Assembly (NCBI GenBank): GCA_963422645.2
Contig: CAXXVO010000009.1
Location: forward strand, 192,001 to 256,000
Source of the DNA: Alphaproteobacteria bacterium
Lineage (GTDB): Bacteria > Pseudomonadota > Alphaproteobacteria > UBA828
Length of the DNA stretch: 64,000 nt
Direction: 5' to 3'
The notes beneath the pieces are model-generated. The model worked only from the letters and a program-made list of their open reading frames with translations. It had not been told where the DNA came from and ran no database searches. Position numbers and translations under genes: made by a program. Positions 8,076 to 30,568 of this stretch are shown here, piece by piece; the first letter of the stretch is position 1, and each line of letters begins with the position of its first letter.

Positions 8076-8163
8076 GGCGGGGCTGTGCTCGCGGGCTGGT
8101 TCCGGGGTCATTCCGCAATGCTGCCCCGCCCCGCACGCACCCTCCACCGCACCATGGTCCGGG

Positions 8164-8346
8164 GTCGCTCGCGCCCGAAGGCTCGCGAGCGCGGAAGTAG
8201 AGTCACGCGCGCCCGTAGGGTCGCGAGCGCGGAAGTAGAGTCGCGCAAGCCCGTAGGGTCTCGCGCGCGGAATATAGAGTCGCTCGCGCCCGAAGGCTCG
8301 CGAGCGCGGAAGTAGACTCACGCGCGCCCGAAGGGTCGCGAGCGCG
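8164..8346. repeat. Tandem array of five ~38-bp hairpin-forming units
   Basis: Unit GTCGCTCGCGCCCGAAGGCTCGCGAGCGCGGAAGTAGA with variants; internal GCTCGCG/CGCGAGC stem. Confidence 0.9.
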
Positions 8347-8381
8347 AGACACATGGCCGGGGGTTGCGACCGCTCCAGCCG

Positions 8382-10349: not shown

Positions 10350-12305
10350 ATGGCCTTCGACACCCTGTTCAGCCCGATCACCGTGGGCGCTCGCCAATTG
10401 CGCAACCGCATCGTCCATGCCGCCACCGTCACCGGCCTCGGCAAGGACCGCGCCGTGACCGACCGCTTGATCGCCTACCACGCGGCCCGGGCGCGCGGCG
10501 GCACCGCGATGATCGTGACCGAGCTGATGAACGTTCACCCCACCAGCAGCGGCGCGCCGATTCTGGTGAGCATCCACGACGAAGCCAACCTGGGGGGCCT
10601 CTCGCGCTGGGCCGAGGCGGTGGAGCGCCACGGCTGCCGGCTGATCGGCCAGCTCGGCCACATCGGCCGCCAGCAGCTCTGGGGCCTCGATTCCGTGCCG
10701 CGCAGCGCGTCCTCGCAACCCGAGACGCTCTATTGGAACAGCGCCCGGCCGCTCGGCGAAGACGAGATTCCGGGCATCGTCGCCGGCTATGCGGAGAGCG
10801 CGGAGCGGCTGAAGCGCGCGGGCTTCAGCGGGGTCGAGCTGCACGGCGCCCACGGCTATCTGATCGCGCAGTTCCTCTCGCCCGCCTGCAACGACCGGAG
10901 GGACGGCTACGGCGGCAGCCTCGAAGGCCGCACCCGCTTCATGCGCGAGGTGATGGCAGCGGTCCGCGCCGCCTGCGGCGACGACTTCATCGTCGGCATC
11001 AAGCTGCCGGCGGACGAGCGCGTGCCGGGCGGCATCGACCCCGACGAAGCGGAGCGCATCGCCCGCGCGGCCGCGGCCGAGGGCGTGCTCGACTATCTCG
11101 CCTTCAGCCAGGGCGCGTTCGGACCTGCGTTCGATACCCATCTGCCTGACATACATTACCCGCCCCGGCCCTTCCTGCCGCTTCACACGCGGCTTCGCGC
11201 AGCCGGCGGCGGGCTCCCGGTGATCGGCCTCGGCCGGATCGAATCGGCCGAAGCGGCAGAGACGGCGCTTGCCGAGGGCGCCTGCGACTTGGTCGGCTTC
11301 AGCCGCCTGTTGATATCGGACGCCGATTGGCCGCGCAAGACGGAGGCCGGCCGCGCCGGCGACGTCCGCGCCTGCACCTTCTGCAACTATTGCTGGGGCG
11401 AGATTCACGCGGGCAAGCCCATCCGCTGCTTCCAGAATCCCGTGCTGGCGAGCGCGGACGAGACCGATTGGCGGCCGCCACCGGCCGATGAGCCCAAGCG
11501 CTTGGTGGTGGTCGGTGCCGGGCTCGCCGGGCTGGAGGCCGCGTGGATCGCGGCGGCCCGTGGCCATGCGGTCACCCTGTTCTCGGCAAGCGCCGAGCCC
11601 GGCGGCGCGGCCCGCATCGAGGCCCTCCTGCCGGGCCGGGCGGAGGTGATGAAGACCGCCGAATTCCAGCATCGCAAGGCCGCAGAGGCAGGCGCCGAAT
11701 TCCGCTTCGGCGAAACCGCGACGACGGCGGCGGTGATGGCGTGCGAGCCCGACGCGGTGATCCTCGCCGCGGGCTCGCAGATGCGCTGGCCGCCGGCGCT
11801 CGTCGAGGGCGCCAAGGCGGTCGATCTGAGGCAAGCCGTCGCAGCGCTGGCCGAAATCGATGTTCCGCCGTCGCCGGGCACTGCGGTGCTGCTCGACATG
11901 GACCAGACACCCGCCGTCTATGGCGCAGTGGAGTTGTTGGCGCAGCGCTTCGCCCGCGTCGTCCTGCTGACCCCGGCGGCGGAGAACGCCCGCTTCGTCA
12001 ACCTGATGTCGCGCATGGGGGTCGAGCGCAGGCTCGCGCAACTCGGCATCGACGTGCGCCGGCTCACCGAGCCGATCGGGCGCCAAGGCGAGCGCGTCAC
12101 CTGCCGCCACGTGATCACCGGCGCCGAGACGCTGATCGAGGATGTCGCGCTGTTCACCTATGCCACACCCCGTGCCGCGCGGGGGGAGCTTGCGGACGAT
12201 CTGGCGGAAGCCGGGGTTCCCGTCACGCTCATCGGCGACTGCCTGCTACCGCGCGACGCCGCGTCCGCCATCCACGACGGCCACCGCGCCGCGCTTGCCC
12301 TGTGA
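10350..12305 (+). CDS. NADH:flavin oxidoreductase (OYE TIM barrel + 4Fe-4S + FAD domain)
   Basis: ELHGAHGYLIAQFLSP, CTFCNYC cluster motif, GAGLAG. Confidence 0.93.
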   Translation: MAFDTLFSPITVGARQLRNRIVHAATVTGLGKDRAVTDRLIAYHAARARGGTAMIVTELMNVHPTSSGAPILVSIHDEANLGGLSRWAEAVERHGCRLIGQLGHIGRQQLWGLDSVPRSASSQPETLYWNSARPLGEDEIPGIVAGYAESAERLKRAGFSGVELHGAHGYLIAQFLSPACNDRRDGYGGSLEGRTRFMREVMAAVRAACGDDFIVGIKLPADERVPGGIDPDEAERIARAAAAEGVLDYLAFSQGAFGPAFDTHLPDIHYPPRPFLPLHTRLRAAGGGLPVIGLGRIESAEAAETALAEGACDLVGFSRLLISDADWPRKTEAGRAGDVRACTFCNYCWGEIHAGKPIRCFQNPVLASADETDWRPPPADEPKRLVVVGAGLAGLEAAWIAAARGHAVTLFSASAEPGGAARIEALLPGRAEVMKTAEFQHRKAAEAGAEFRFGETATTAAVMACEPDAVILAAGSQMRWPPALVEGAKAVDLRQAVAALAEIDVPPSPGTAVLLDMDQTPAVYGAVELLAQRFARVVLLTPAAENARFVNLMSRMGVERRLAQLGIDVRRLTEPIGRQGERVTCRHVITGAETLIEDVALFTYATPRAARGELADDLAEAGVPVTLIGDCLLPRDAASAIHDGHRAALAL

Positions 12306-14236: not shown

Positions 14237-14367
14237 CCGTCCCTGTGGCACTCTCGTATATAATCGTAACTGCCCAGGTCTGATTCTGCCGAGCACTCGG
14301 ACGTGATGGATTGATGGTTCTGACCAGCCAGGGGTCAGGCGGCGCTTTCCCGGAGCAGCGCAGGATT

Positions 14368-15909
14368 TCAGAAGCGCAATACGGGGATCAGCTGGATTGG
14401 ATCGGGGTGCGCCAGGGTTTCGAGGACATTCCAGCGCTGTTTTCGAGCGGTGGCGATGACGGATCGCAGGTTTGCGAAGTCGCGGGCGCCTTGTATCGAG
14501 CGGAAGCCGCCTGAGATTTTCTGGCGCAGCTTGCCCATTCGGAGGTCGCGCTCGGCCTCGTTGTTGGAGAAGGGGGTTCGCGGATCGGTGAGGAAGCGCA
14601 GGCACCCCTCCTTGTACTTCTGGAGTCGGAGGGCGAGGTTGTGACCGATGCGGCGCTTTTGTCGTCCGCGCTTTCCGGTCTGGAGCGGTGGCATTTCTTC
14701 GTGAGAGGCGATGGCACGTTCGAGGATGCGGTCCCAGGCTCGCGAGATGCGGGCCACCAGTGAGGCGGGCACGTCGCGGTCGTTCTTGTGGGCGAAGCGG
14801 GCGGCTCTGTTGGCACGGATGAGGAGCCGGTGCGTGCTCGTTGCCCAGTCTTCCTTCTCGATCTCGATGAGGGCTTGGAGCTCGCGCAGGTGATGGGCGT
14901 TGCAGGCCCCGTGGCGCACGCCCTCGAGAGCGAAGTAGGTGGCGTAGTCGTCATGGATGACGATGCCGTTGAGCTTCTCGTCGATGTGGCTGCGCCCGGT
15001 GGCGACGCGCAGGATGGTGAGCAACGGGGTGCACAGCACATGGAGCCAATGGGTCCGGGCGGCGATGCGGATGCCGGTCTCGTCGAGGTGTTTGACTGGG
15101 GCTGCGGTGCGGATGATCTCCGCGAGGCGATCGAGGAAGCCCTCGAAGCGCCGGGCGGTGCGCCTTCCCATGGCGACGATGGTGGCTGTTGAGAGCTTGA
15201 CCGCGAAGAGGTCGCTCATGACCTCGGCGACCCGCTTCTCGGGAATGAACTGAGCGTGCAGCAGGTAGGTCACCCACGCGGTGATGCGCGGCCCGTATTG
15301 GACCGGTGCGCTCACGCCGTTCGGGAAGACGGCTGTCGTCACGGTGCCGCAGGCAGCGCAGAGGCAACGATGGCCGCGATGTTCGGTGACCTCGAGGGGC
15401 TGCGGCTCGGGCACATCGAAGACCTGCCGGCAGACGGGGGCTCCGTGACGGTCAGCGTCCGACAGCGGCGCGCCGCAGCCCTCACAGGCGGACGGATCAT
15501 GATCGACGACATGGTCGGGCGTCGCGGTCCGCTCCAGGGTAGTTCCCTTGTGGCCCGGCTGGCCGCCACTGGGCCTGTCGGACTTGCCGCGCTGGCTCCG
15601 GGTGCGCTTCTCCCGGTCACCGCTCTTCTTCTTCAGACCGTCGCTGGCCGGCGGCTTGGAGCTGGTGGTGCTGTCGAGCGCGGCGCTGCGCTCGAGTTCG
15701 GCGATCCGCTCGCGCAAGCGGGCGTTCTCCCGCTCCAGCGCGTCGTTCTCCTTGACCAGGGCCGCGCTCAGGCGCAGCAACCCCTGGCCCCATTCCCGAA
15801 TGGCTTTGACGGCGGTCATTGCGAAGGATTGTGGGGTGAAAAGGTCCTGCAGGCACGCGAAGGCCTCGTCGTGGGCAGCGAGGTCCTCGTGCCAGCGCGA
15901 CACTGTCAC
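14368..15909 (-). CDS. tnpC: IS66 transposase TnpC
   Basis: Coiled coil, SSKPPASD, GGQPGHKG, CxxC zinc finger, HLDETG, CNAHHLREL, NNEAERDLR; GTG start overlaps MTase stop (GTGA). Confidence 0.95.
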   Translation of the reverse strand: MTVSRWHEDLAAHDEAFACLQDLFTPQSFAMTAVKAIREWGQGLLRLSAALVKENDALERENARLRERIAELERSAALDSTTSSKPPASDGLKKKSGDREKRTRSQRGKSDRPSGGQPGHKGTTLERTATPDHVVDHDPSACEGCGAPLSDADRHGAPVCRQVFDVPEPQPLEVTEHRGHRCLCAACGTVTTAVFPNGVSAPVQYGPRITAWVTYLLHAQFIPEKRVAEVMSDLFAVKLSTATIVAMGRRTARRFEGFLDRLAEIIRTAAPVKHLDETGIRIAARTHWLHVLCTPLLTILRVATGRSHIDEKLNGIVIHDDYATYFALEGVRHGACNAHHLRELQALIEIEKEDWATSTHRLLIRANRAARFAHKNDRDVPASLVARISRAWDRILERAIASHEEMPPLQTGKRGRQKRRIGHNLALRLQKYKEGCLRFLTDPRTPFSNNEAERDLRMGKLRQKISGGFRSIQGARDFANLRSVIATARKQRWNVLETLAHPDPIQLIPVLRF

Positions 15910-16574
15910 GAACCCTCGTCGGCCTCGACGGCCATGATCGCGGCCAGCACCGCCAGGCGTTCGCCCGCCGGCATGGCCTCGTAGCGCCGGCCCCAGTTGG
16001 CCGCCTTGCGCTTGATGCACTGGCGCTCGGTGAAGTTCCGGCCGGCGAAGCTCGCCCAGTGCACCCGGTCAGGCGCGAAGTTGAACCACACGACCTCGGT
16101 CCGCACCTGGGCCTGGGTCGTCACCTGCAGCGCCAGCCGGCGCCAGCCCGCCAGCAGCTCGTCATAGAGCGCAGACGGGTGGCCCGAGACCATCACCTGG
16201 CAGGGCAGACCCTTGAGCAGTTCGAGGAGCGCGACGTGGTCGGCCTCCTCGTACTCGAAGCGGTAGCGCTGCGACGAACGCCGGGTCGCGTGCAGATAGG
16301 GCGGATCGCTGTAGACCAGCTCCGGGCCCAGAAACGGGAACGAGGCCAGGAAGGAATGGGCGCAGCCGTGCACCAACTCCACCGGGTAGTCGCAGCCAAA
16401 GGCCTCAAGCGCCCGCTCGTCGCGGTCGATCCCGATCGAGCGCATGGCCGCAGGCTTGCGCTTCATCAGCGCCCCGCCCCCAAGATGGCTCTCGATATAG
16501 ACAGAGTGCGGCGGCATCAGCGCAATCAGCGCCTGGCTCAGACCGGTCGTCGCCTTCGACCCGAAATACCCCAC
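15906..16574 (-). CDS. Dam/D12-class N6-adenine DNA methyltransferase (IS66 passenger)
   Basis: YFGSK, YIESHLGGG (motif I-like), GID, VYSDPPY (motif IV), RTEVVWFN. Confidence 0.88.
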   Translation of the reverse strand: MGYFGSKATTGLSQALIALMPPHSVYIESHLGGGALMKRKPAAMRSIGIDRDERALEAFGCDYPVELVHGCAHSFLASFPFLGPELVYSDPPYLHATRRSSQRYRFEYEEADHVALLELLKGLPCQVMVSGHPSALYDELLAGWRRLALQVTTQAQVRTEVVWFNFAPDRVHWASFAGRNFTERQCIKRKAANWGRRYEAMPAGERLAVLAAIMAVEADEGS

Positions 16575-16621: not shown

Positions 16622-19134
16622 CAGACTTCCTGACCTCGTGATGCTGGCTGTTCTGGGCAGCGTGCCGGGAACTCCTTGAATTCTGATACATTTCGGTTGT
16701 TTCAGGCGGTTTTTCGCTGGGTGTCGCGCCCGAGGTCTGATATTATAATTTGATACCAATTGCACGGTCTCAACCATGCCCAGTACCCTCCCAATGTGCC
16801 CTCCAGAGGCGGTCTCGATCGGCAACAGCTGCTTCGCCGTCCTGATCTCGGACGACACCTTCACCTACTTTTCCAACCTCATTCCCTTTGACAGCCACGC
16901 CGCCGATGACCGCACGGCCATGCTCTTGCGGATCGGCCGCCTCGCGGCGATCAGCGCGGTCTCGCCGCAGGAACTGGCTGACGCTTTCGCTGTCTCGCGC
17001 GCGACGGTGCAGCGCGCACGACGGCGCTACCTGGCCGAGGGCGAAGCGGGGTTCATGAAGCCCCGGCGCGGTCGCGGGCCGTCGGTGTTCACTCCGGAGT
17101 TGGCGGAGAAGGCGACGGCGTTGCTGGCATCGGGCCTGAGCGGCTCTGCGGCGGCCCGGGTTCTCGGCGTGTCAGCGCCATCGGTCAACAAGTGGCGCCG
17201 TCAGGGACTGATCGGCAACACGGAGGCGGATGGGGAGCCCGGACGCTCAGCGCTGGCTGCGCCGCCTGACGCGGGTGCGGCTCCTGAAGGCCGTGTCGAT
17301 GAAGAGAGTACCGGTGCCCCGGGGCCGGAGACGGCGCCGGGGCTGGAAGCGCAGCCGCAAACGGATCGCAGCGCGCGCGATCGGCGGGACCGGCAGGCGC
17401 CGATGGGGCGTGCGACTTGCGATGTTCCGGCTCGGGTTCTGGCCAGTTGTGGACAGGCGGGGCCGGTCGAACCGCAGTTCGCCGCCGCCGCCCGCGGTGT
17501 CCGCTTCGGCGGCGTGCTCGCCGCCCTGCCGGCCCTGCTGAAGGAAGGTCTTCTCTCCGAGACCGGTCTCCTGCCATTGCTGCCGAAGGGCTATTACGGC
17601 TTGCCTACGATCCTGCTCTTCCTGGCCTTCATGACCTTGGCGCGGGTGCGCAACCCCGAGAGCCTGCGCTACCAGGCGCCGGGCGAATGGGGCGCCATTC
17701 TCGGCCTCGATCGCTGCCCCGAGGTCAAGACGCTGCGCCGCAAGATCGCTCTCATCGCCGACGACGAGGCCGGCGTGCGGGCGTGGCAGCTCGCCCTTGC
17801 CAGGCGCTGGCAGGCGCCGACGAGCCGGAGCTCTGGGCGACGCTGGCCATCGACGGGCACGTCAAGGTCTACTCCGGCCGCAAGGGGCGCTTGCCCAAGC
17901 ACTTCGTCTCGCGCGAGAAGCTGTGCCTGCCGGCGAGCGCCAGCTACTGGATCAACGCTCTGGGCGGCAAGCCGCTGCTCTGTCTGCACAAGCCGCTGGA
18001 CCCGAAGATGGTCGCGGCCATCGAAGCCGACGTGGTGCCGGCGCTGCAGGAGCTTGGGATCGTTGGCGCCGGGGCGCCGGACCTGACCGCCGAGCATCCC
18101 GGCCAGCCGGCGCTCACCCTGGTCTTCGACCGCGAGGGCTGGAGCCCGGATCTGTTCCGCCGGCTGGCGAGGCGCGGCGTCGCCTGCCTGACCTGGCACA
18201 AGAACTTCAGGGGCGAGGACTGGCCGGCCGAGGACTTCGGCGCGATGACCGTTCCCATTCACGGACCGGCGGCGGACGGCAGCGCCACCATGCGGCTGGC
18301 TGAGAAGCCGGTGACGTTGCCGAACGGCTTCAGGGTGCGCCAGATCCGCCGCCTGCTCGACAACGGCCGTCAGGTGCCGCTGATCACCACCGATCCGCAC
18401 AAGCCGATGGCTGAGGTTGCGGGCGCCATGTTCTCGCGCTGGTCGCAGGAGAACTTCTTCAAGTACATGCGTGACGAGTTCAATCTCGACGCCCTGCCGA
18501 CCCACGAGCTCGAGCCTCTCGATCCCGCCGCCATGGTCGTCAACCCGCTGCGGCGGGCCTATGACAAGGCAATCCATCGCCTCGACCGCCAGCTTGGCCG
18601 CCTGCGCAACCGCATCGCCGACACGGCCCGGAAGAAGCAGCCGACGGCGGAACTCAGGAGGGAAGTCAGGGACCTCCAGGATGTCCGCGACATCGTCAGG
18701 GCCAGCCGCAGGGAGACGCCCAAGCACTGCCGGGCCGGCGACCTCGACGAAGCCGAGCAGCTCGATGCCTTGCCCGCGCGCGAGCGCCTCCTCCTCGACG
18801 TCATCCGGATGATCGCCTACCGCGCCGAAACCCGCATGATGCTTCCCGTCATGCAGGCGCAGGGCCACAAGCCCCATCCCCGGAAACTGCTTCAAGCGCT
18901 GCTCACCGCCGATGCCGACATCCTGCCGGATCCTGGCAATGGCCTCCTGCGGGTCCACATTCTTGGCCTCGCAAACGACGCCTGCGACCGTTGGATCGAT
19001 GCGGTTCTGAGCGACCTGAACGCCACCGAAACGGTCTTCCCCGGCACCCGTCTGCGCATAGTCTACGACATCGACGGGGCCTCGGAATCCGCGCGGCTCG
19101 TGTCACCTAAAATCAGCAGAGGTCAGGAAGTCTG
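16622..19134 (+). mobile_element. Unclassified (ISNCY-like) insertion sequence nested in IS66 copy 1
   Basis: Perfect 16-bp TIR CAGACTTCCTGACCTC; 5-bp flanks AACCT/AAGCT. Confidence 0.9.
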
Positions 19135-19135
19135 A
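16776..19135 (+). pseudogene. Large DDE transposase with frameshift near 17815
   Basis: N-terminal HTHs; after the shift IDGHVKVY, LVFDREGWS, RWSQENFFKYM. Confidence 0.8.
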
Positions 19136-19244
19136 AGCTATACAGTCAAGCGGGGATCAACGACGCGCCGACGGCGAAACGGCACCGACGGCAAGCAACA
19201 TCAGCACGCACTCAGAACTGGCGGCGGGGTACCTGGGTAGTTAC

Positions 19245-19750
19245 AGCATGATAAAGAAGTGGCGCGGGTCCACCGGCGCCATTTGCCCGCGGCGGATCCA
19301 CTCTTCCACCACGTGGGCGCGCTGGTCGGTGACGTCGCGGATGTGCTGGCGCTGGTGCCGCTCCAGGAACTGGGCACCGCGCAGGATCTCGTTGGCGAAG
19401 AAGCGGGACTCGGTGGCGTGGCGGCGGGAATACTCGAGTTTCGCGCGAATGTAGGCGGCGATGGCCTCACGGGGTTCGTGCTCAGGGACGATATGCTCGA
19501 AGGCGCGGTCCCATCCCTCGATCAGGCGCTCGATCACGGCCGTGTAGATGCTCTCCTTGGTCGGAAAGTAGTAATAGACGTTCGTCTTGGGCAGGCCGCT
19601 GACCTTCGCGATTTCCTTGATGTGCGTGCCGTGAAAGCTCTTGTCGGCAAAGAGGCCGACGGCGGCGCGCAGGATTCTCTCCTCGTTGCGGGCCCGGATA
19701 CGCAGCGTCGGCGCCGCCGCCCCCGCATTTGCCTGCGCTCTCTTCGTCAT
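19245..19750 (-). pseudogene. RutR-family TetR regulator truncated at C-terminus by IS66
   Basis: SGLPKTNVYYYFPTKE HTH, YIRAKLEYSR, SRFFANEIL; ends VDPRHFFIML at the IS end. Confidence 0.88.
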
Positions 19751-19839
19751 GGATATCCCTCGCACTCTACGCCGGCGAGACCCACAGCCGGCGCCGTTCG
19801 CAGTCTAGCCCCGCATCCAGGCTGGGTAGAGAAAATACT

Positions 19840-19887
19840 TGACGTGCGTGTCAGGTTACCAAATCGTGGAACATGACACGCGTGTCA
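19840..19887. promoter_or_regulatory. Two TGAC-N6-GTCA operator sites (RutR-box architecture)
   Basis: TGACGTGCGTGTCA (19840-19853, overlapping a TTGACG -35-like hexamer) and perfect palindrome TGACACGCGTGTCA (19874-19887). Confidence 0.75.
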
Positions 19888-19900
19888 GCTTTTTGAGACC

Positions 19901-20773
19901 GTGGAGCGGTTGGACGCCATGGCGGTGCAACTGAGAACGGCGCTGCGGGAGACGCTGGAAGGCTGGCAGACTGACGTCGATCCGCTTTGGCGTGATGTGG
20001 TCCGCGATGTCGACCTGGCGTTCGACGATGTGGACCCCGCGCTCGAACTCGAGCCCTGGGAGCCGATCTTTCCTGCCCGTCGCGGCCGGACCTTTCCCGG
20101 TGCGCCGGCCGGCGCGCACATGCTGCGCGCCTTCGACCGGCTCGCGCCTGCGGCCGTGCGCTGCGTGATTTTGGGCCAGGATCCCTATCCCTGCCCGGCC
20201 TTCGCCACCGGCCGGGGTTTCGAGGCCGGCAACGTCACGTGCTGGCGGGAGCTCGACAAGATGTTCTCCCCCAGCGTGCGTGCGGTCATCCAGCTCATCG
20301 TGGCCGCCCGGACCGGGGAGGCCCATTACGCCCAGAGCTTTTCTCGATGGCCAGCGACACTGGCGGCCATCGAGGACGGCGCGATCGACCTGGAAGCGCC
20401 GGGCGCCCTTGCCGATCGCTGGGTGGCGTCGGGCGTATTGCTTCTCAACACCTCGCTCACGCTTTCGCGCTTCCAGCGCGAGGGCGATCCGCATCAAGTG
20501 CGGGGGCATCTGCCACTCTGGCGACCGCTGATGGTCCGGGTGCTCGACCATCTCGCGGGGAGGAGAACGCCGGTCGTCTTCATCGGCTTCGGCGACGCGG
20601 CGGCCGAGACTCTCGTGGCGGCGGGCCTCAGCGGGCCAGATGCAGGCGATACGGAGCGTGTCATCCTCCGCCCGCACCCGGCCTCGGCCGACGAGATCCT
20701 CGCGCAGGAGAACCCGTTCACACTCTGCAACAGGCGCCTCCAGGCCATGGGCGCGGCAGCAGTGAACTGGTAG
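19901..20773 (+). CDS. Family-1 uracil-DNA glycosylase-like protein
   Basis: VILGQDPY, ATGRGF, W...GVLLLNTSLT, GH..LW, HPAS; start may be 19919. Confidence 0.85.
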   Translation: MERLDAMAVQLRTALRETLEGWQTDVDPLWRDVVRDVDLAFDDVDPALELEPWEPIFPARRGRTFPGAPAGAHMLRAFDRLAPAAVRCVILGQDPYPCPAFATGRGFEAGNVTCWRELDKMFSPSVRAVIQLIVAARTGEAHYAQSFSRWPATLAAIEDGAIDLEAPGALADRWVASGVLLLNTSLTLSRFQREGDPHQVRGHLPLWRPLMVRVLDHLAGRRTPVVFIGFGDAAAETLVAAGLSGPDAGDTERVILRPHPASADEILAQENPFTLCNRRLQAMGAAAVNW

Positions 20774-20776
20774 CCG

Positions 20777-22438
20777 ATGCCGCGTGCACGGGCAGCCGAT
20801 TACATCATCGTGGGCGCCGGCTCGGCGGGCTGCGTGCTGGCGAACCGGCTCTCGGCCGATCCCGAATGCTCGGTGCTGCTGATCGAGGCCGGAGGCAAGG
20901 ATCGCAATCCCCTGTTCCGCCTGCCAATGCTGATGGGAAGGCTGTTCCACTCCGGCATCTACAACTGGCGCTATCACACCGAGCCGGTGCCGAGCCTGGG
21001 CGGCCGCTCGCTCTACTGGCCGCGCGGCAAGGTGCTGGGTGGCTCGTCCACCATCAACGGCATGGTTTACGTGCGCGGCAATCGCCACGACTACGACCGG
21101 TGGGCCCAAATGGGCCTCACCGGCTGGTCCTACGAGGACGTGCTGCCCGCGTTCCGCCGCTCCGAGGGGCATATCGAGCGCGACGACGCCTATCACGCCA
21201 CTGGCGGCGAGCTCACCGTCTGCCGCGCGCGCGGCGCCAACCCGCTCTTCGACACATTCGTCGAGGCGGGCCGCGAGGCGGGTCATCCCGTCAACGACGA
21301 TTTCAACGGGTCCGGGCAGCAGGGCTTCGGCCGCTATGACTTCACCATCAGGCGGGGCAGGCGCTGTTCCGCCTCGACGGCCTTCCTGCGCCCCGTCCGA
21401 CATCGCCGCAATCTGGCGATCGCCACCGATTGCCTGGTGCGCCGCGTGGTTGTCGAGGGTGGCCGCGCCACAGGGGTCGAGGTCTCTGACGGTGCCGGCG
21501 TTCGGACCATCCGCGCCGAGCGCGAGGTCATCCTCTGCGGCGGCACGGTCAACTCGCCTCAAATTCTCATGCTCTCCGGCATCGGGCCCGGCGACGAGCT
21601 GGGGCGGCACGGCATTCCCGTGGTCCACGAGCTCCCCGGCGTCGGACGCAACCTGCAGGACCATGTCGACTGCGTCCTCGCCTACACCTGCACCGAGCCC
21701 ATCACCCTCTACCGGGACTTGCGGGCCGACAGGCTCATCCGCTCGGTGGCCGAAGGGCTACTATTCGGCCGCGGTATGGCCACGACCTTCCCTTATGAGG
21801 CGGGCGCCTTCCTCAAGAGCCGGGCGGAGATGGTGGCGCCGGACATCCAGGTGCACTTCATGCCGGCGCTGGAAAGTGCGGCCAACCTCCACGTCCCCAA
21901 TCCCTTCAGGAAGGCACCGGTCGAGGAGACCCACGGCTTCAGCATGCGCGTGGGCCCGGTCAATCCCGAGAGCCGGGGCTGGATCGGCCTCGGCTCCGCC
22001 GATCCAGCAGCGCCGGCGCTGATCCAGCCCAACTACCTGCACGACGAAGCCGATTGCCGGACGACGATCGCGGGCATCCGCATGGTCCGCGACGTGATTG
22101 CGCAGTCGGCCTTCGATTCCTATCGCGGCCGGGAGCTTGCCCCCGGCGAGGCGGTGCAAAGCGACGCCGAGCTCACCGCCTGGCTCCGCGCCAACGCCAT
22201 GACGACCTTTCATCCGGTTGGCACCTGCCGCATGGGCACGGACCCGATGGCCGTGGTGGACGCCCGCCTCGCGGTCCGCGGCATCGCGGGGCTCAGGGTC
22301 GCCGATGCGTCCGTGATGCCGGTCATCGTGAGTGGCAACACCAACGCGGCCGCCATCATGATCGGCGAGAAGGCGGCCGAATTCATGCAGGGTCTTGCCC
22401 AGCCTGCATCCGCCGCAACGGGGGAGATTGGGACATGA
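20777..22438 (+). CDS. GMC family oxidoreductase
   Basis: GAGSAG, PRGKVLGGSSTINGM, FHPVGTCRMG, SGNTNA. Confidence 0.95.
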   Translation: MPRARAADYIIVGAGSAGCVLANRLSADPECSVLLIEAGGKDRNPLFRLPMLMGRLFHSGIYNWRYHTEPVPSLGGRSLYWPRGKVLGGSSTINGMVYVRGNRHDYDRWAQMGLTGWSYEDVLPAFRRSEGHIERDDAYHATGGELTVCRARGANPLFDTFVEAGREAGHPVNDDFNGSGQQGFGRYDFTIRRGRRCSASTAFLRPVRHRRNLAIATDCLVRRVVVEGGRATGVEVSDGAGVRTIRAEREVILCGGTVNSPQILMLSGIGPGDELGRHGIPVVHELPGVGRNLQDHVDCVLAYTCTEPITLYRDLRADRLIRSVAEGLLFGRGMATTFPYEAGAFLKSRAEMVAPDIQVHFMPALESAANLHVPNPFRKAPVEETHGFSMRVGPVNPESRGWIGLGSADPAAPALIQPNYLHDEADCRTTIAGIRMVRDVIAQSAFDSYRGRELAPGEAVQSDAELTAWLRANAMTTFHPVGTCRMGTDPMAVVDARLAVRGIAGLRVADASVMPVIVSGNTNAAAIMIGEKAAEFMQGLAQPASAATGEIGT

Positions 22439-22761
22439 TCGTCGAGCATCGCACCTACACCTTCCGCCCCGGCGCGGTGGACGGTTGGCTCAAGAAATAC
22501 GAAGCGGAAGGTCTGCCCATCCAGAAGCGCCATCTCGGCCACTTCGTCGGTCTTTACGTCTCCGAGATCGGACGCCTGCACCGGATCGTCCTGATCTGGG
22601 CTTACGAGAGCCTGGCCGATCGCGAGCGTCGGCGGGCCGCGATGACCGCGGACCCCGCGTGGCAGGCCTTCATTCAATCCGTCTGGGCGCTCGACGCGAT
22701 CCAGGAGCAGGACGTGATGGTGATGAACCCGGCGCCGTGCTCGCCGCCCATCGGCAATTGA
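22435..22761 (+). CDS. NIPSNAP family protein
   Basis: MIVEHRTY..RPG, WAYESLADRERRR...DPAW; ATGA overlap with the GMC gene. Confidence 0.9.
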   Translation: MIVEHRTYTFRPGAVDGWLKKYEAEGLPIQKRHLGHFVGLYVSEIGRLHRIVLIWAYESLADRERRRAAMTADPAWQAFIQSVWALDAIQEQDVMVMNPAPCSPPIGN

Positions 22762-22837
22762 ACGGTTCGCCCGTGGGGTCTGCCCACGAATTCCGGCCTG
22801 GCGCAGCGGGCGCCCGAGAGAGAGAAGGAGAAACGCC

Positions 22838-23911
22838 ATGTCGAACAAGCCGACGTTGAAGGATCGGAGTGCGATGCATGCTCTCGTCAGCCGCCGCCGC
22901 TTTCTGGCGGCTACCGCCGGTGTCTCTGCGATCGTCGGCACGGGTGCTGCGTTGCCCTTTGCGGCGCGCGCGGACACCGGGCTCGTCGCCCTGGTTCACA
23001 CCCAGGCGGCTGGCGACAACGGCCCCATCGATTCCATGATGGGACGGCTCAACCAGCTCTCGGAGGCGCAAGGCTTCGAGACCCGAGCCATCTACGCCCA
23101 GGACCCGGCGACCTACGAGACCGTGCTCAGGACACTCGGCGATGCGGGTGCTTCCATCGTGCTCGGCACATTCCCGGTCATTTCCGAGGCATTCAAGGCG
23201 GTGGCCCCGCTCTATCCCGACACCAGGTGGATTCAGCTTTTCGGCGACCCCGTCGACCCGCCGATCGCGAACCTTGTGACGGTTTCCTACGACTACTACC
23301 TGGGCTGCTATCTGTCGGGCATCTTCGCCGCCCAAGTCTCGCAGTCGAAGCAGATCGGCTATATCGGCGGCATTAGCATTCCGCCGCTGAATGCCGACTT
23401 CAACGCGCTCAGAGCAGGCGTCCACGCGGTCAATCCGGACGCCACCGTTACCGCCGCGTTCGCGGGCTCCTTCCAGGACCCGGCCAAGGGCTTCGAGATC
23501 GCGAGCCAGATGTTCCTGGACGGGATCGACTATATCCAGACCGATTCCGCCGCGACCGACGGCGGTATCATCCAGGCAGCCAACGAGCGCGAGGGCGCCA
23601 TGGTCAGCGCGCTCGACCCCGCTCAGTATCCGCTGGGACCCGGCTCGGTGATTGGAGTGGTCAGCCTCGACTTCGGCCAGTCGCTCCATAACGAGACCGG
23701 CGCGGCGCTCGCCGCCGACTGGCAGGGCGGGCGGCATGTGCCGACCGGCCTCGGCAGCGGCGTGATCGACTTCCTGCGCTCGCCGCTCTATCGGGAGCAG
23801 GGGCCGGCGGCAATCGTCGCCCGGGCCGACGAGGCGTGGCCCGCAGTCGAGGCGGCGCGGGCGGGTATCCTCGACGGATCGGTCACGGTGCCGTTCAATA
23901 CGGAGCTCTGA
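22838..23911 (+). CDS. BMP-family nucleoside ABC substrate-binding protein (Tat signal)
   Basis: SRRRFL Tat motif, GD.G..D, IGYIGG, GSFQDPAKG. Confidence 0.88.
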   Translation: MSNKPTLKDRSAMHALVSRRRFLAATAGVSAIVGTGAALPFAARADTGLVALVHTQAAGDNGPIDSMMGRLNQLSEAQGFETRAIYAQDPATYETVLRTLGDAGASIVLGTFPVISEAFKAVAPLYPDTRWIQLFGDPVDPPIANLVTVSYDYYLGCYLSGIFAAQVSQSKQIGYIGGISIPPLNADFNALRAGVHAVNPDATVTAAFAGSFQDPAKGFEIASQMFLDGIDYIQTDSAATDGGIIQAANEREGAMVSALDPAQYPLGPGSVIGVVSLDFGQSLHNETGAALAADWQGGRHVPTGLGSGVIDFLRSPLYREQGPAAIVARADEAWPAVEAARAGILDGSVTVPFNTEL

Positions 23912-23946
23912 TCGCCCGTCCTGATGAGGAGGTCCCTTCGGGAGAC

Positions 23947-25530
23947 ATGACGGCGGCGGACCCGCCGGCCCTCCAGTGCCGCGGGATTCGCGTTACATAC
24001 GGCGAGGTCACGGCGCTCGCCGAGCTTGAGATCGCCTTCGCGCGCGGTGCCATTCATGCCGTGGTCGGCCAGAACGGCGCGGGCAAGACCACCTTCGCCC
24101 GCGTCGCAGCCGGTCTCATTCGGCCCGATGCAGGCTCGCTCCATATCGACGGGCACCCGTTGCGTCTCGGCCGTGTGGCCGGCGCGCGTGCGGCAGGAGT
24201 CGAGCTGGTTCACCAGAGTTTTGCGCTGCCGCCCTCCTTTACCGTGGCGGAGGCGCTGGAGTTCGGTGCCGGCGGCGGTATCGGCCCCTACAGCCGTCGG
24301 CAAGTTCTCTCGCGTTGCCGCGAGCGCCTCGCTGCCCTCGATCTCGACGTCGATCCCCGCCGGCGCATCCGCGACCTGCCGGTGGAGGTGCAGCAGGGAG
24401 TGGAGATCGCCCGCGCGCTAGTCACCGATGCGCGGCTCCTGATTCTGGACGAGCCCACGGCGGTGTTGCCGCCCTCCGGCATCGAGGTGCTCTTCGAGCG
24501 TATCCGCAGCCTCAAGCGGCACGGGGTCACGGTGATCCTGATCCTCCACAAGATCCGTGAGGTGCTGGCGGTTGCCGACACGATCTCGGTGTTGCGCGGG
24601 GGCCGGCTGGTGGCGGGTCCCATCCCGCGCGAAGGCGCCGACGAAACGAGCATCGCCGAGATGATTATCGGTGGCGCGGGCGCCGCCTCCATCGGCGCCG
24701 ACGACACGGATGCGCTGATCGGCACAACGCCCGTCCGGGGATCCGCTGTTCGCGGTGCGCGCTTGGGCGGGAAGTTCGTCCGAATGCCGGAAGCGATCCT
24801 CGAACTGGCGGGTGTGAGCACGGTGAAGGAGCCGGAGGAGTCGCCGCTCGACCGGGTCTCCCTCACGGTCAGGCCGGGGGAGATCGTCGGGGTCGCCGGG
24901 GTTCAGGGCAACGGCCAAGGGACCCTGGTAAAGGCGATCGCCGGCCTCGCCGACATGACGGGCGGGGACATCCATCTGGGTGGCGCGCGCGTAAGCCGCA
25001 TGAGCCCCGCCTCCCGTCGCGCGCTGGGCCTGCGCGTCATTCCCTTCGAGCGCAACAGCGAGGGACTCAGCCTCACCAGCGCGCTGTGGGAGAACTGGTC
25101 CGTTCGCGACCTGATGCAAAGGCCGTTGTTCAGTCTCGTCGATCCGACAGCTCTGCGCCGGCGCTGCGACGAGGCTCTCAAGGCCTGGGGCGTGCGCTAT
25201 GCGTCGGCGACACAGAGCGCAGGCGCTCTTTCCGGCGGCAACGCGCAGAAGGTGATCCTCGCGCGCGAGATCGACGAAGACGCGCGCCTGATCATCGCCG
25301 CGCAGCCCGCGCGCGGGCTCGATATCGGTGCCACCGCCTTCGTCTGGTCGGCACTGCGGGAGGCAGCCGAAGGCGGCTGCGGCGTGCTGCTGATCTCGTC
25401 CGATCTCGACGAGCTCTTCGACGTCAGCCATCGCCTGGTGGTGATGCTCTCAGGCCAGATCGCCGGCGAGTTCGCACCGCCCTACGACATCGCCGCGGTG
25501 GGCCGTGCCATGACCGGGGCGTCCGCGTGA
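23947..25530 (+). CDS. ABC ATPase with two NBDs (nucleoside/sugar type)
   Basis: GQNGAGKT, LDEPT, LSGGNAQK. Confidence 0.95.
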   Translation: MTAADPPALQCRGIRVTYGEVTALAELEIAFARGAIHAVVGQNGAGKTTFARVAAGLIRPDAGSLHIDGHPLRLGRVAGARAAGVELVHQSFALPPSFTVAEALEFGAGGGIGPYSRRQVLSRCRERLAALDLDVDPRRRIRDLPVEVQQGVEIARALVTDARLLILDEPTAVLPPSGIEVLFERIRSLKRHGVTVILILHKIREVLAVADTISVLRGGRLVAGPIPREGADETSIAEMIIGGAGAASIGADDTDALIGTTPVRGSAVRGARLGGKFVRMPEAILELAGVSTVKEPEESPLDRVSLTVRPGEIVGVAGVQGNGQGTLVKAIAGLADMTGGDIHLGGARVSRMSPASRRALGLRVIPFERNSEGLSLTSALWENWSVRDLMQRPLFSLVDPTALRRRCDEALKAWGVRYASATQSAGALSGGNAQKVILAREIDEDARLIIAAQPARGLDIGATAFVWSALREAAEGGCGVLLISSDLDELFDVSHRLVVMLSGQIAGEFAPPYDIAAVGRAMTGASA

Positions 25531-26573
25531 GCGGCATGAGCATCCGCGCGGGCGCGGTAGTCCGCACTCTCGCCTTCATCGTGATTGCGCTCGCGCTCTG
25601 CGGCGTCGTCTTCGAGCTGGCCGGCTACTCCGCGCTTCTGATGTTCGAAAGCGTCGTCGAGGGCGCCTTCCTGCGGGCGGGCGGCTGGGCGCAGAGCCTG
25701 CGTTGGGCCTTGCCGCTCTTCATCACCGCGACCGGCGTCGCGATCTCATTCCGCTGCGGCTTCTTCAATATCGGTGCGCAGGGCCAGTTCTATGTGGGCG
25801 CCGTCTGCGCCGCCTTTGTCGCCGAGGGGCTCGGCGGCGCACCGGCCGCCCTCGTGCTGCCGGCGACCTTCCTCGCTGGCATGGCGGGCGGAGCGCTGTG
25901 GGCGCTCTGGCCGGGGTATCTCAGGCTTCGCTCCGGGACCGACGAGGTCATCACCACCTTGATGGGCAACTTCATCGCCACGCTCGTGCTGGTCTACGTC
26001 ACCTCGGGCCCGCTCAAGGACCCCTCCGGCACCGGCCAGCAGGCGGCGAGCCCGCTGCTGCCCGCGGCCTATCGGATCAGCGATTTCCAGGGCATCTCGC
26101 CCGCGATCATCGGCATCGCGGTGGCCGTCGCGCTCGCCATGTGGGTGCTGGTCAACCGCACGCCCTTCGGCATGCTCGCGAGCCTCGCCGGGCGCAACCC
26201 GACCATGGTGCGCTTCCAGGGGGCGCGGCTCTGGACTCTCGGCCTCTCCAGCTTCCTGATTTCGGGCGCACTGGCGGGGCTTGCCGGCACCATCGAGCTC
26301 CTGGGCCCGACCGGGCGCATCGCGAGCGGCTTTCTGCCGGCCCACGGCTTCACCGCGGTGCTGATCGCGCTGGTCGCAAACCTTTCAGTGCTCGCGACGG
26401 CGGTCGTCAGCATGTTCTTCGGCGGCCTTGCGTACGCCGCGCTCTATCTGCCGATCCTGGCCGGGCTGCCGGCCGCTGCCATCGACATCTTCAACGCCTC
26501 CGTCGCGCTCTTCATCACTGCCAAGTCTGGGTTGCTGGATCGCCTCCTGCGCATGGCCAAGTTGCCGACATGA
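25527..26573 (+). CDS. Nucleoside ABC transporter permease
   Basis: FNIGAQGQF, EVITTLM; GTGA overlap. Confidence 0.92.
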   Translation: MSGMSIRAGAVVRTLAFIVIALALCGVVFELAGYSALLMFESVVEGAFLRAGGWAQSLRWALPLFITATGVAISFRCGFFNIGAQGQFYVGAVCAAFVAEGLGGAPAALVLPATFLAGMAGGALWALWPGYLRLRSGTDEVITTLMGNFIATLVLVYVTSGPLKDPSGTGQQAASPLLPAAYRISDFQGISPAIIGIAVAVALAMWVLVNRTPFGMLASLAGRNPTMVRFQGARLWTLGLSSFLISGALAGLAGTIELLGPTGRIASGFLPAHGFTAVLIALVANLSVLATAVVSMFFGGLAYAALYLPILAGLPAAAIDIFNASVALFITAKSGLLDRLLRMAKLPT

Positions 26574-27472
26574 CCGAGTTCCACGAGTTCATGGTGGCGA
26601 TCCTGCGCTCCGGCACGCCGCTGGTTTACGTCACCATGGCAGGCGTCATCGCCCAGCGCGCAGGCGTCTGGCACCTCGGCCTCGAAGGCGTGATGATCAT
26701 CGGCGCGTGCGCAACGATCCTCGGCATCGTGCTGACCGGTTCGTTCCCGGCTGCCATCGCGATCGCCTGCGTGCTCTGCGTCGCGGCCTCGGTCCTGCTC
26801 TGGTTCGTGATCGAGAAGCTGGGCGCCAACCCAATCATCGCAGGCCTGGGCCTCACGGGACTCGGAATCGGTGGGACGGCCTTGGCCGTTCAGTCGCTTT
26901 TCGGCAGCCTCGCTGCCGTGACCGCACCCTTCGGCGTGCCCCGGCTCGGTGCGTCCTTCGGCACTTACGGCGCGCTCTCGATCTTCGTTCTGATGATGCC
27001 CTTCGTCGTCTGGGGCATGTGGGTGCTGCTGCGCCGCACCCGCTACGGCCTGCGGCTTGCCGCCGTTGGCGAGCATCCGCTCGCAGCACGCAGCGTCGGC
27101 ACCAGCCCGGCCAATGCGAGGCTCATCGCGCTGGGGGCCGGCGGCATCCTCTGCGCCATCGGCGGGGCCGAGCTCGCGGCAGGCGGCCTCACCATCTTCG
27201 CGCAGAACATGACCGCAGGCCGCGGCTTCATGAGCTTTGCCGCCGTCATCTTCGGCGCGGGGCATCCCGTCGGCGCGGCCTTCGCTGCGCTCTTCTTCAG
27301 CCTGGTGGGCGTCGCCGGAATCAGGCTGCAGCTTCTATTCGGCGCAAGCATCCCGCACGACGTGCTGCTCTCGCTGCCCTATATGGCGACGATTGCCGGG
27401 GTATGGATCAGCGGCCGGATGCGCGGCGGCGCCAAGGCCGCTACGCAGGCCTCGGAACTTCGCGACTATTAG
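26570..27472 (+). CDS. Nucleoside ABC transporter permease
   Basis: GLEGVM, GLRL.AVGEHP, AGRGF, LPY; ATGA overlap. Confidence 0.92.
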   Translation: MTEFHEFMVAILRSGTPLVYVTMAGVIAQRAGVWHLGLEGVMIIGACATILGIVLTGSFPAAIAIACVLCVAASVLLWFVIEKLGANPIIAGLGLTGLGIGGTALAVQSLFGSLAAVTAPFGVPRLGASFGTYGALSIFVLMMPFVVWGMWVLLRRTRYGLRLAAVGEHPLAARSVGTSPANARLIALGAGGILCAIGGAELAAGGLTIFAQNMTAGRGFMSFAAVIFGAGHPVGAAFAALFFSLVGVAGIRLQLLFGASIPHDVLLSLPYMATIAGVWISGRMRGGAKAATQASELRDY

Positions 27473-27521
27473 CGCGGAGTGCTCTTCACAGCCGTGCCGA
27501 GAGAACGGGGGACGGCGCAAG

Positions 27522-28544
27522 TCAGGTCGTGACGACAATCTTTCCGCGCTGCACGTTGGTTTCCATGTACCGGTGTGCGTCCACGATCTGCTCCAGGGGG
27601 AAGGTCCGGTCAATGATGGGCTTCAAGGCGCCGGAGGCCACCTCATCATGCACGAAGGCGAAACAGGCGGCGCGCTTCTCCGGCAAGCGCATCGTGTCGT
27701 ACAGGCTGTGGAACTTGAAGAAGAGCCGCTTTGCGAGCATCGGCAGGACGGGAATGTCGATCGGCTCGGTGCGCAGGTTGCCGTAGTTGACGATGAGCCC
27801 GTAGGGCTGCGCCGCCGCGACGAGATCGCCGATGAAGGCGCCGCCCACCGGGTCGTAGGCGATGGTGAAACCCTGGCCGCCGGTGATCTCCTTCACGCGG
27901 GTTTCGAGGTCCTCCTCTTCGGTGGCGATGACGTGATCGGCGCCGGCGCCGTGCAGAAATTCCGCTTTCACGGACCTGCGCGTGGCGGCGATAACCATGG
28001 CGCCGGCATTCTTCGCGATCTGCAGCCCGGCGAGCGCGGCGCTGCTGCTTGCCGCCGTGACCAGCACGATGTCGTCGGACGACACGCCGGCGTGATCGAC
28101 GAGCCCGCCCCATGCGGTGCCGTACTGGCACCAGATTGCACCCGCCTCGATCGCCGAAATCCCGTCAGGATTGCGGGCGATGCAGAACGCAGGCACCACC
28201 GCACTCTCACCGTAGAGGCCATACTTCATGACCGAATCGCTGGTCCAATTGCCCCACTGGTCCCACGAATTGAAGGGAACGGCACCGGCGCGGTCGCCGA
28301 TGGAGAAGCCCGAGACGCCGGGGCCAAGCGCATCGATCACACCGCTCGCCTCGATCCCGATGCGGGAGGGGAAGGTGGGGTTGGAGATGTAGGCACCGTT
28401 CCGGAACATGATCTCGGCCCGGTTGAGGCCGATCGCCTCGATCTTGAGGCGGACCTCGCCCTCGCCAGGTTCTTCGAGCGGCTCGTCGTGAACTTCCAAG
28501 ACCTCGGGGCCTCCGTGACTGGCGAACCGAACGATGCGGGGCAT
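27522..28544 (-). CDS. MDR-family NADPH:quinone oxidoreductase-like protein
   Basis: GGPEVL, AIGLNRAE, TAASSS, GKIVV. Confidence 0.9.
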   Translation of the reverse strand: MPRIVRFASHGGPEVLEVHDEPLEEPGEGEVRLKIEAIGLNRAEIMFRNGAYISNPTFPSRIGIEASGVIDALGPGVSGFSIGDRAGAVPFNSWDQWGNWTSDSVMKYGLYGESAVVPAFCIARNPDGISAIEAGAIWCQYGTAWGGLVDHAGVSSDDIVLVTAASSSAALAGLQIAKNAGAMVIAATRRSVKAEFLHGAGADHVIATEEEDLETRVKEITGGQGFTIAYDPVGGAFIGDLVAAAQPYGLIVNYGNLRTEPIDIPVLPMLAKRLFFKFHSLYDTMRLPEKRAACFAFVHDEVASGALKPIIDRTFPLEQIVDAHRYMETNVQRGKIVVTT

Positions 28545-30214: not shown

Positions 30215-30568
30215 ATAGCGCCGCAGCGCGATGCGCCGCCCTTGCCCTTTGCTCCTGCGAGACTGCGCTGCCGAATTCTCTTCAAGTCGACGATGTGCGA
30301 TGCACCATGTGCCTCGCGCACGCCAGGCGCAAAGCGCATCGACCCCATTGATTTGTGTAGGATACACGCTTGCTAAAAGCGCATGCCTGATGGGCATAAT
30401 GGTGTAACTGCCCAGGTACCCCCTCTCTCTTATGGAACAAGCCAGTTCCTTTTGCGTCAACGCCCCCACGCCGCGGGGGTGCCTACTCTCTTGAGCGCGA
30501 GAGGATGATGAACGCCGCGTCGCGAACAAGATGAGAGGACAGCGATACTCAGGATGAGCCGGAGAAGT

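Follow-up and report, generated by a model that had tools for sequence, protein, structure and literature searches.

A 64-kb stretch of an alphaproteobacterial genome (contig CAXXVO010000009.1, positions 192,001 to 256,000), referred to here as the window, contains at positions 19243-27472 an operon headed by a gene whose product resembles the uracil-DNA glycosylase UNG. Coordinates given without a locus name are positions in the window. The UNG-like gene is followed by genes for a GMC-family oxidoreductase, a NIPSNAP protein, and an ATP-binding cassette (ABC) transport system with a BMP-family binding protein, and it lies divergently from a gene for a TetR-family regulator related to RutR. 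We interpret this block as a horizontally spread operon under repressor control, with a uracil (deoxy)nucleoside or one of its close analogues as the most likely substrate. The best-supported reading of its function, which we consider about evenly balanced between being right and being wrong, is that the operon serves the salvage or catabolism of an imported pyrimidine glycoside, with the UNG-like protein acting as a small-molecule N-glycosidase. Enzymes of the uracil-DNA glycosylase (UDG) superfamily are textbook DNA-repair proteins, and none is known to us to act in small-molecule metabolism.

Results

The UNG-like gene heads a conserved operon

The block lies in a region of ≈68% GC and contains the following features:

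19241-19765, minus strand: RutR-like TetR gene, C-terminally truncated (Pfam TetR_N and TetR_C_3; best NCBIfam match RutR)
19766-19918: spacer holding both TGAC-N6-GTCA sites (pattern match)
19840-19853: putative operator half-palindrome TGAC-N6-GTCA, site 1 (pattern match)
19874-19887: putative operator TGAC-N6-GTCA, site 2, 34 bp past site 1 (pattern match)
19919-20773, plus strand: UNG-like gene, encoding 284 amino acids (aa) if it starts with the ATG at 19919, or 290 aa with the alternative GTG start at 19901
20777-22438, plus strand: GMC-family flavin adenine dinucleotide-dependent oxidoreductase, BetA-like (GMC_oxred_N and GMC_oxred_C)
22435-22761, plus strand: NIPSNAP protein of the dimeric alpha/beta-barrel type, 108 aa (PF07978, E 2e-29, 102 bits, full-length match)
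22838-23911, plus strand: BMP/PnrA-family periplasmic binding protein with a twin-arginine leader, SRRRFLA (PF02608, E 3e-34, 119 bits)
23947-25530, plus strand: ABC ATPase with two nucleotide-binding domains (PF00005, two stretches)
25536-26573, plus strand: ABC permease 1 (PF02653)
26570-27472, plus strand: ABC permease 2, the final gene of the conserved block (PF02653)

An earlier note on this DNA had described the same gene order, and all eight genes are indeed found at the places that it gave. The tight packing that it reported is exact as well: the UNG-like stop codon and the GMC start are separated by 3 nt, and the GMC and NIPSNAP genes overlap by ATGA. A promoter and terminator scan of 19200-27700 gave no signal above shuffled controls.

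Conservation of the cluster was assessed in a scan of one genome per species, which yielded 40 loci with UNG-like relatives at 54-81% identity, labeled Rhodospirillales, Mesorhizobium, Ensifer, Shinella, Devosia, Hoeflea, Paracoccaceae, and others. Partner genes were scored by tblastn with the window proteins (E ≤ 1e-10, at least half of the query). All eight genes were present in 32 of the 40 loci, which span several alphaproteobacterial orders, and 4 of the other 8 loci were cut by contig ends. Of 39 assessable loci, 37 had the GMC gene directly 3' of the UNG-like gene (it is absent in L003 and L017; L013 ends), and NIPSNAP was present in 36 of 39 (absent in L006, L017, and L031), the BMP protein in 35 of 38, and the divergent TetR gene in 36 of 38. 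Linkage to the transporter and GMC genes, which the earlier note had proposed as a check on its pathway, thus holds down to 54% identity, and unlinked homologues were not the pattern found over this range.

The gene for the second permease was in some loci followed directly by accessory genes of the same orientation. These encoded a RihA-like pyrimidine ribonucleoside hydrolase in 9 loci and a deaminase-like amidohydrolase, whose best models are nucleobase and nucleoside deaminases and chlorohydrolases, in 9 loci; one or both were present in 16 of the 32 full clusters. Locus L003 (1142-4648, on a single 6.8-kb contig) keeps the putative operator, the UNG-like gene, and NIPSNAP and has no GMC gene; divergently upstream lie genes for a DIOX_N-type 2-oxoglutarate (2OG)-Fe(II) oxygenase and for a protein of the fatty-acid-hydroxylase family.

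The cluster is rare and patchy and is not a housekeeping locus. Among 400 other genomes sampled from the class, at least 2 had the UNG-like gene, as did at least 1 of 400 other genomes of a phylum sample (E ≤ 1e-20); these counts are lower bounds, with at most 6 candidates scored per genome. A scan of viral contigs for a phage link gave just stretches of 23-31% identity, which is too distant for the UNG-like clade, and PADLOC gave no match that would indicate a defense link.

The UNG-like protein combines a conserved active site with altered DNA-contacting motifs

The UNG-like protein matched no Pfam family at E 0.01, including PF03167, and scored 64.5 bits against the NCBIfam ung model TIGR00628, whose cut-off is 185.75. 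A phmmer search nevertheless retrieved family-1 UNGs, with Mycobacterium tuberculosis Ung as the best match (1.6e-10), and the ESM Atlas returned only clusters named 'uracil-DNA glycosylase family protein'. Homologues are mostly 281-284 aa long. An AlphaFold2 model built with 26 orthologues (predicted local distance difference test score 84, predicted template-modeling score 0.87) superposed on M. tuberculosis Ung (4wpk) with Z 17.6 and a root-mean-square deviation of 3.1 Å over 207 of 228 residues; its Foldseek E value to family-1 UNG was 3e-7. Together with human (2ssp) and Escherichia coli (1eug) UNG, the matches span Z 14-17.6 over ≈200 residues, and the predicted structure has the alpha/beta fold of family-1 UNG. 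The protein is without a signal peptide, so that it is expected to encounter its substrate in the cytoplasm, once the substrate has been imported.

Motifs of the UNG-like protein, named here as in the report on the Bradyrhizobium enzyme BdiUng (PMC5449639), read GQDPY, GRGF, LLLN, and HPASAD in the window. The earlier note had listed GQDPY, the G..F Phe, the LLLN Asn, and the catalytic His as kept and HPSPLS as changed to HPASAD, and we read them likewise. All 26 orthologues share GQDPY, the stacking Phe, the Asn of LLLN, and the His-Pro of motif B without exception. F101 and N177 are also invariant in an alignment of the wider clade, across which the catalytic Asp and His, present in all 26 orthologues, are nearly so.

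These motifs are those of family-1 UNG. Unlike family-1 UNG, the protein has a motif B of the form HPA-x-A/G-x with no Leu wedge; orthologues and the wider clade have Ala, Gly, or Phe in place of that Leu. The DNA-pinching serines are likewise not conserved: the PPS position reads WPATL and varies across orthologues, and the GS position reads GFGD. Further differences from family-1 UNG are an added N-terminal part of ≈60 residues and a conserved helical insertion of ≈40 residues between the Phe strand and the PPS position, with ten invariant residues (W..EL.KMFS.S.R); the segment at the stacking Phe is TGR.FE with invariant Arg and Glu. The location of the gene in a transport and oxidation operon also sets it apart from family-1 ung genes.

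Distant relatives occur in other operons

A profile search of 1.84 billion representatives returned 126 clusters (50% identity) at E ≤ 1e-30; with the threshold relaxed to 1e-10, the number rose to 1341. The motifs GQDPY, ATGRxFExG, LN..LT, H..W.P, and HP are common to the aligned members, whose identity ranges down to 25%, and all of these lack the Leu loop. When distant members were used to scan metagenomes, 80 loci were obtained, 44 of them at least 5 kb, among which L095 (61% identical) was the sole locus of the window type. Some distant members (30-45% identity) adjoin genes for non-orthologous functional analogues of the window partners. A second operon type was found in 12 metagenome loci and is fullest in L099 (2796-16807) and L108 (3675-16858), where the order is HAD hydrolase, PF13618 small subunit, distant GMC flavoprotein, 111-aa Dabb barrel protein (PF07876, E 4e-18), UNG-like protein, 525-aa and 406-aa proteins without a significant family match, 939-aa protein containing an amidohydrolase domain of deaminase-like type, and S8 subtilase. 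Among loci of this type, the GMC flavoprotein was present in 6 and the PF13618 subunit in 7, and the Dabb gene lay directly 5' of the UNG-like gene in 4. In 13 distant loci there is a gene for a 551-aa deaminase-like amidohydrolase, which in 11 of them is the same-strand neighbor of the UNG-like gene; the encoded protein shares 30% identity over 122 residues with the amidohydrolase of window-type clusters. Flavin dehydrogenases, barrel proteins, and deaminase-type hydrolases therefore recur with the clade, if not in all of its branches. A weak Pfam UDG match (E 0.024) at the N-terminus of the 939-aa amidohydrolase was considered as a possible UDG-deaminase fusion and was rejected upon profile comparison (probability 0.2%).

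The regulator is a RutR paralogue with two candidate operators

The TGAC-N6-GTCA pattern occurs at 19840 and 19874, the two sites named in the earlier note, and nowhere else in the window. A site lies 5' of the UNG-like gene in 38 of the 40 related loci, and at least two sites are present in 27 of 40, with starts 32-35 bp apart in most printed pairs. The TGAC and GTCA arms presumably resemble the RutR box. Some loci have a gap of ≈1 kb between the TetR and UNG-like genes. In L011 (8900-9950), this spacer is expanded by short repeated elements with recurring translated motifs; an extra gene, which we considered for such loci, was rejected, as the gaps hold just repeats and shadow open reading frames (ORFs).

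The earlier note had placed the divergent gene in the RutR family. Its likeness to RutR held up, with the qualification that it is a truncated copy of a paralogue. The window protein scores 140 bits against RutR models and matches only profile positions 8-155 of 202, and full-length orthologues remain below both RutR equivalog cut-offs (169 versus 368 bits; 149 versus 230 bits). A TetR orthologue nonetheless aligns over its full length with E. coli RutR (138 bits to RutR chains; structures 3loc and 6z1b), with which the regulator shares two Pfam domains and the residues W77 and W167. Four RutR residues matter for uracil binding according to PMC4325133: L74, W77, L78, and W167, of which L78 faces C5 of uracil and excludes thymine. 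The TetR orthologues all keep W77 (36 of 36), and 35 of 36 keep W167; position 74 is Ile or Leu, and the Leu78 position is Asp in 36 of 36. Because both tryptophans are kept, Leu78 is replaced, and the scores fall below the RutR cut-offs, comparison of these sequences identifies the regulator as a RutR paralogue and not RutR, one that probably senses a pyrimidine ring with an altered edge. It also differs from E. coli RutR in the operon that it controls.

In the source strain, the TetR gene is cut short by an insertion sequence (IS). Two features lie at the break point:

16776-19135, plus strand: frameshifted IS transposase, outside the operon, in two overlapping ORFs, 16776-18086 (N-terminal helix-turn-helix [HTH] and the first part of the Transposase_29 family) and 17417-19135 (PF21804 Transposase_29, E 3e-72)
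19134-19245: probable IS end, a direct repeat (D7) of 112 nt with a second, 99% identical copy at 35739-35850

The repeat abuts the TetR break and adjoins the frameshifted transposase. By blastn against three related loci, homology begins exactly at 19243, and it ends exactly at 27472 for L002 and L005, the two compared loci that reach that far. The window protein has 174 aa versus ≈215 aa in orthologues (the L002 orthologue has 215 aa and is 41 residues longer), so that the last ≈41-48 codons are gone, including the equivalent of RutR W167. The genome encodes no second RutR-like protein at E ≤ 1e-10. With its repressor gene truncated, the operon is probably unregulated in the source strain. 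At 35739-35850, the 112-nt repeat recurs just 5' of a LysR-type gene (35945-36760) whose HTH is cut (last 26 residues match), which suggests that this is a second gene truncated by the same element.

Relatives of the GMC enzyme and the transporter

The GMC protein matches PF00732 (7e-59) and PF05199 (5e-36). It passes the broad choline dehydrogenase subfamily model NF002550 (667 versus a cut-off of 605 bits) and is below the betA equivalog TIGR01810 (575 versus 732 bits). Its closest solved chains are choline dehydrogenase (9lq0, 1e-135), chloramphenicol oxidase (8b7s), and alcohol oxidases; more distant solved relatives are pyridoxine 4-oxidase, hydroxymethylfurfural (HMF) oxidase, glucose dehydrogenase, and pyranose dehydrogenase. 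The window holds a second GMC paralogue (8657-10279, minus strand), with ≈72-73% DNA identity over ≈260 nt to the GMC genes of the related loci. Divergent from it, 10350-12305 (plus strand) encodes an Old-Yellow-Enzyme-type flavoprotein fused to a pyridine-nucleotide-disulfide reductase domain.

The best solved relative of the BMP protein is the thymidine-binding BmpA of Borrelia burgdorferi (9q1u, E 7e-23, 85 bits). According to PMC13325309, BmpA binds its ligand through an aromatic cradle of F27 and F176 and the ribose-binding residues D225 and K242; the equivalents of F176 and D225 are kept in the window protein, whose match list also includes adenine-, atrazine-, and riboflavin-type entries. 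The best NCBIfam match of the ABC ATPase is the BMP-type ABC ATPase model, below its cut-off. The system resembles the PnrA/BmpA/BmpD importers in having a BMP-family binding protein, a duplicated ATPase, and two permeases, and it differs from them in the twin-arginine leader of its binding protein in place of a lipoprotein signal (PMC13325309).

Genome background and mobile-element surroundings

The source genome (99.6% complete) contains three other PF03167 UDG genes and no canonical ung above cut-off. Neither deoC nor a thymidine phosphorylase gene was found above cut-off in this genome or in carrier genome G048, and both genes are present in carriers G247 and G762. A role of the operon as a complement to the classical deoxynucleoside route was considered and set aside, as both genes are present in 2 of 4 carriers and the pattern is not consistent.

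Two IS66 copies that are 100% identical and in direct orientation (14266-16215 and 33389-35338) flank ≈17 kb that includes the operon, an arrangement that looks like a composite transposon. A third IS66 copy (30467-32410), 62-89% identical, lies between them, with a 41-nt inverted repeat 5' of it (29917-29957/30174-30214; 85% complementary, 216 nt between the arms). The product of an ORF at 7326-8354 (minus strand) has a domain like Gp27 of phage Mu (PF11985), which hints that prophage or other mobile DNA is nearby. As the cluster is rare and is found here between two identical IS66 copies, its distribution and flanks fit a mobile accessory trait.

Discussion

A proposed route for imported pyrimidine glycosides

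We infer the substrate and every catalytic step of the following scheme, starting from the gene content, conservation, fold, motif pattern, and operator pattern observed. The BMP-type ABC system would import an external pyrimidine N-glycoside, and the cytoplasmic UNG-like enzyme would hydrolyze the base-sugar bond of the free molecule by means of its uracil pocket and catalytic Asp and His. Loss of the DNA loops and gain of the insertion would fit the enzyme to a substrate without a phosphodiester backbone. The GMC and NIPSNAP proteins would process the non-base part. Family-1 UNG inverts configuration, and the barrel fold of NIPSNAP is of the same kind as that of rhamnose mutarotase; in our preferred version of the scheme, an inverting glycosidase would free an alpha-sugar, NIPSNAP would act as a mutarotase or isomerase, and the GMC enzyme would oxidize the sugar. 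Equally, the nucleoside may be oxidized first and cleaved afterwards, and oxidation of a hydroxymethyl group on the base is also possible. The RutR paralogue would bind both TGAC-N6-GTCA sites and be released by a pyrimidine effector unlike uracil near C5. The earlier note had extended the possible imports to short oligonucleotides, which nothing in our analysis of the BMP system supports.

Hydrolytic release of pyrimidine bases is usually the work of inosine-uridine (IU)-type nucleoside hydrolases such as RihA and UriH, which would carry out the proposed chemistry and have a fold unrelated to that of the UNG-like protein. The IU-type enzymes need the ribose 2'-OH, and UNG chemistry is tuned to 2'-deoxy sugars; the RihA-like and UNG-like enzymes of the same cluster may therefore be complementary rather than redundant. 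A precedent for the sugar branch is the oxidative deoxyribose pathway, in which the free deoxy-sugar is oxidized to the lactone or acid as the entry into catabolism, albeit by a molybdenum-containing dehydrogenase, unlike the GMC enzyme; the main text of that report contains none of the terms GMC, mutarotase, and thymidine (PMC6365646).

Weighing the alternatives

A small-molecule, non-repair role is favored by the altered DNA motifs, the conserved insertion, the rarity of the gene, and the three other UDG genes of the host. Several observations weigh against it. The intact Asp/His/Tyr set is exactly what a DNA glycosylase needs. The GMC enzyme is nearer to primary-alcohol oxidases than to sugar-1-oxidases. 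The BMP protein keeps a partial nucleoside-binding set, with Leu in place of K242 and an N-terminal motif (the F27 region) that cannot be aligned. Both deoC and thymidine phosphorylase are absent in just 2 of 4 carrier genomes, so the operon fills no clear metabolic gap. Linkage to GMC, NIPSNAP, and BMP genes is confined to the orthologous subfamily, with 79 of the 80 metagenome loci lacking the window partners. In five distant loci (L130, 6212-9378, and also L094, L116, L126, and L131), which hold the most distant UNG-like genes, the neighbors encode LigD primase-polymerase, LigD phosphoesterase, or metallo-beta-lactamase-fold proteins, and the UNG-like gene is flanked by the LigD genes and the metallo-beta-lactamase-fold gene. 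This is a DNA end-repair setting, unlike the metabolic ones. The invariant Tyr of GQDPY, which blocks 5-substituents in family-1 UNG as stated in PMC5449639, and the Asp78 of the regulator, which hints at a changed C5 side, are hard to reconcile with a single simple substrate.

The earlier note had proposed a UDG fold repurposed as an N-glycosidase and had pointed to loss of the intercalating Leu. The first part is the best-supported reading, with the partial support and even balance described above; loss of the Leu loop alone does not suffice for it, because BdiUng (Blr0248) of Bradyrhizobium diazoefficiens, which represents a separate UDG family without a classical motif B, cuts DNA and prefers single-stranded substrates (PMC5449639). 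BdiUng resembles the UNG-like protein in coming from an alphaproteobacterium, in its family-1-like motif A, and in its lack of a classical motif B, and it differs in having GQDPA and YVMVN ≈35 residues past motif A, compared to an invariant Tyr and a spacing of ≈90 residues; the main text of its report does not contain the term 'operon' (PMC5449639). No entry recognizable as from Bradyrhizobium was present among the sequence and fold matches of the UNG-like protein, which are listed by generic UDG names. This precedent bears on the reading in which the UNG-like protein is a true DNA glycosylase, probably acting on single-stranded DNA to remove uracil or analogues misincorporated during heavy salvage, while the GMC and NIPSNAP proteins serve an unrelated catabolic step. 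The complete catalytic and uracil-recognition set, the family-1 fold across 207 residues, a host without canonical ung above cut-off, and the LigD-linked relatives are also consistent with such an enzyme. We nonetheless consider it unlikely, given that the gene is the first of the operon, 3 nt from the GMC gene in a linkage kept in 37 of 39 assessable loci; that it is rare and patchy rather than housekeeping; that the pinching serines and Leu wedge are not conserved, whereas the new insertion is; that three other UDG genes are present in the genome; and that other subfamilies, too, are repeatedly partnered with oxidoreductases and deaminase-like enzymes.

The primary-alcohol oxidases nearest to the GMC enzyme (choline dehydrogenase, chloramphenicol oxidase, HMF oxidase, and pyridoxine 4-oxidase) point to another kind of substrate, a free hydroxymethyl pyrimidine or related heterocycle (for instance 5-hydroxymethyluracil or a deaminated cytosine analogue), whose CH2OH group the GMC enzyme would oxidize while the UNG-like protein acted on the base or on a non-sugar N1 substituent rather than on a nucleoside. 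This reading agrees with the Asp that the regulator has where RutR has its C5-facing Leu, with the binding of bases and heterocycles by BMP proteins and the adenine-, atrazine-, and riboflavin-type entries in the match list, and with the 2OG-Fe(II) oxygenase (DIOX_N type) in place of GMC in L003, but the last rests on a single 6.8-kb contig, the GQDPY Tyr that blocks 5-substituents is invariant, and the ribonucleoside hydrolase added in 9 loci points to glycosides; on this evidence, we regard the reading as quite improbable. A non-catalytic role for the UNG-like protein, as a component that binds uracil or acts like a chaperone and, for example, sequesters the released base, is very improbable. 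The uracil pocket is conserved and no other data require catalysis, but the water-activating Asp and the leaving-group His are invariant in 26 orthologues and nearly so across the clade, which is unexpected for a binder.

The small-molecule N-glycosidase reading can be extended to the whole clade, which would then have left DNA repair and would comprise pyrimidine N-glycosidases of oxidative (deoxy)nucleoside or glycoside catabolism that teamed up repeatedly and independently with GMC, barrel, and amidohydrolase proteins. We put this extension forward tentatively and think it somewhat more apt to fail than to hold.

Implications

In the literature, supplementary files aside, we found no paper describing the UNG-like family or its operon, nor a metabolic UDG, a bacterial 5-hydroxymethyluracil pathway, or a pairing of GMC and NIPSNAP proteins. 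If the clade hydrolyzes free pyrimidine glycosides, it would constitute a new enzyme class in nucleoside catabolism and a clean case of a repair fold recruited into metabolism, and it would explain widespread genes now annotated as 'hypothetical protein' or 'UDG family protein'. The operon would also supply a regulator/operator pair and a binding protein for a pyrimidine ligand. Some carriers are cultivable and genetically tractable soil bacteria (Ensifer adhaerens and Mesorhizobium), which makes the question directly testable. If the activity were to hold across the clade, these genes would define a new route for the breakdown of (deoxy)nucleosides or of nucleoside-like natural products.

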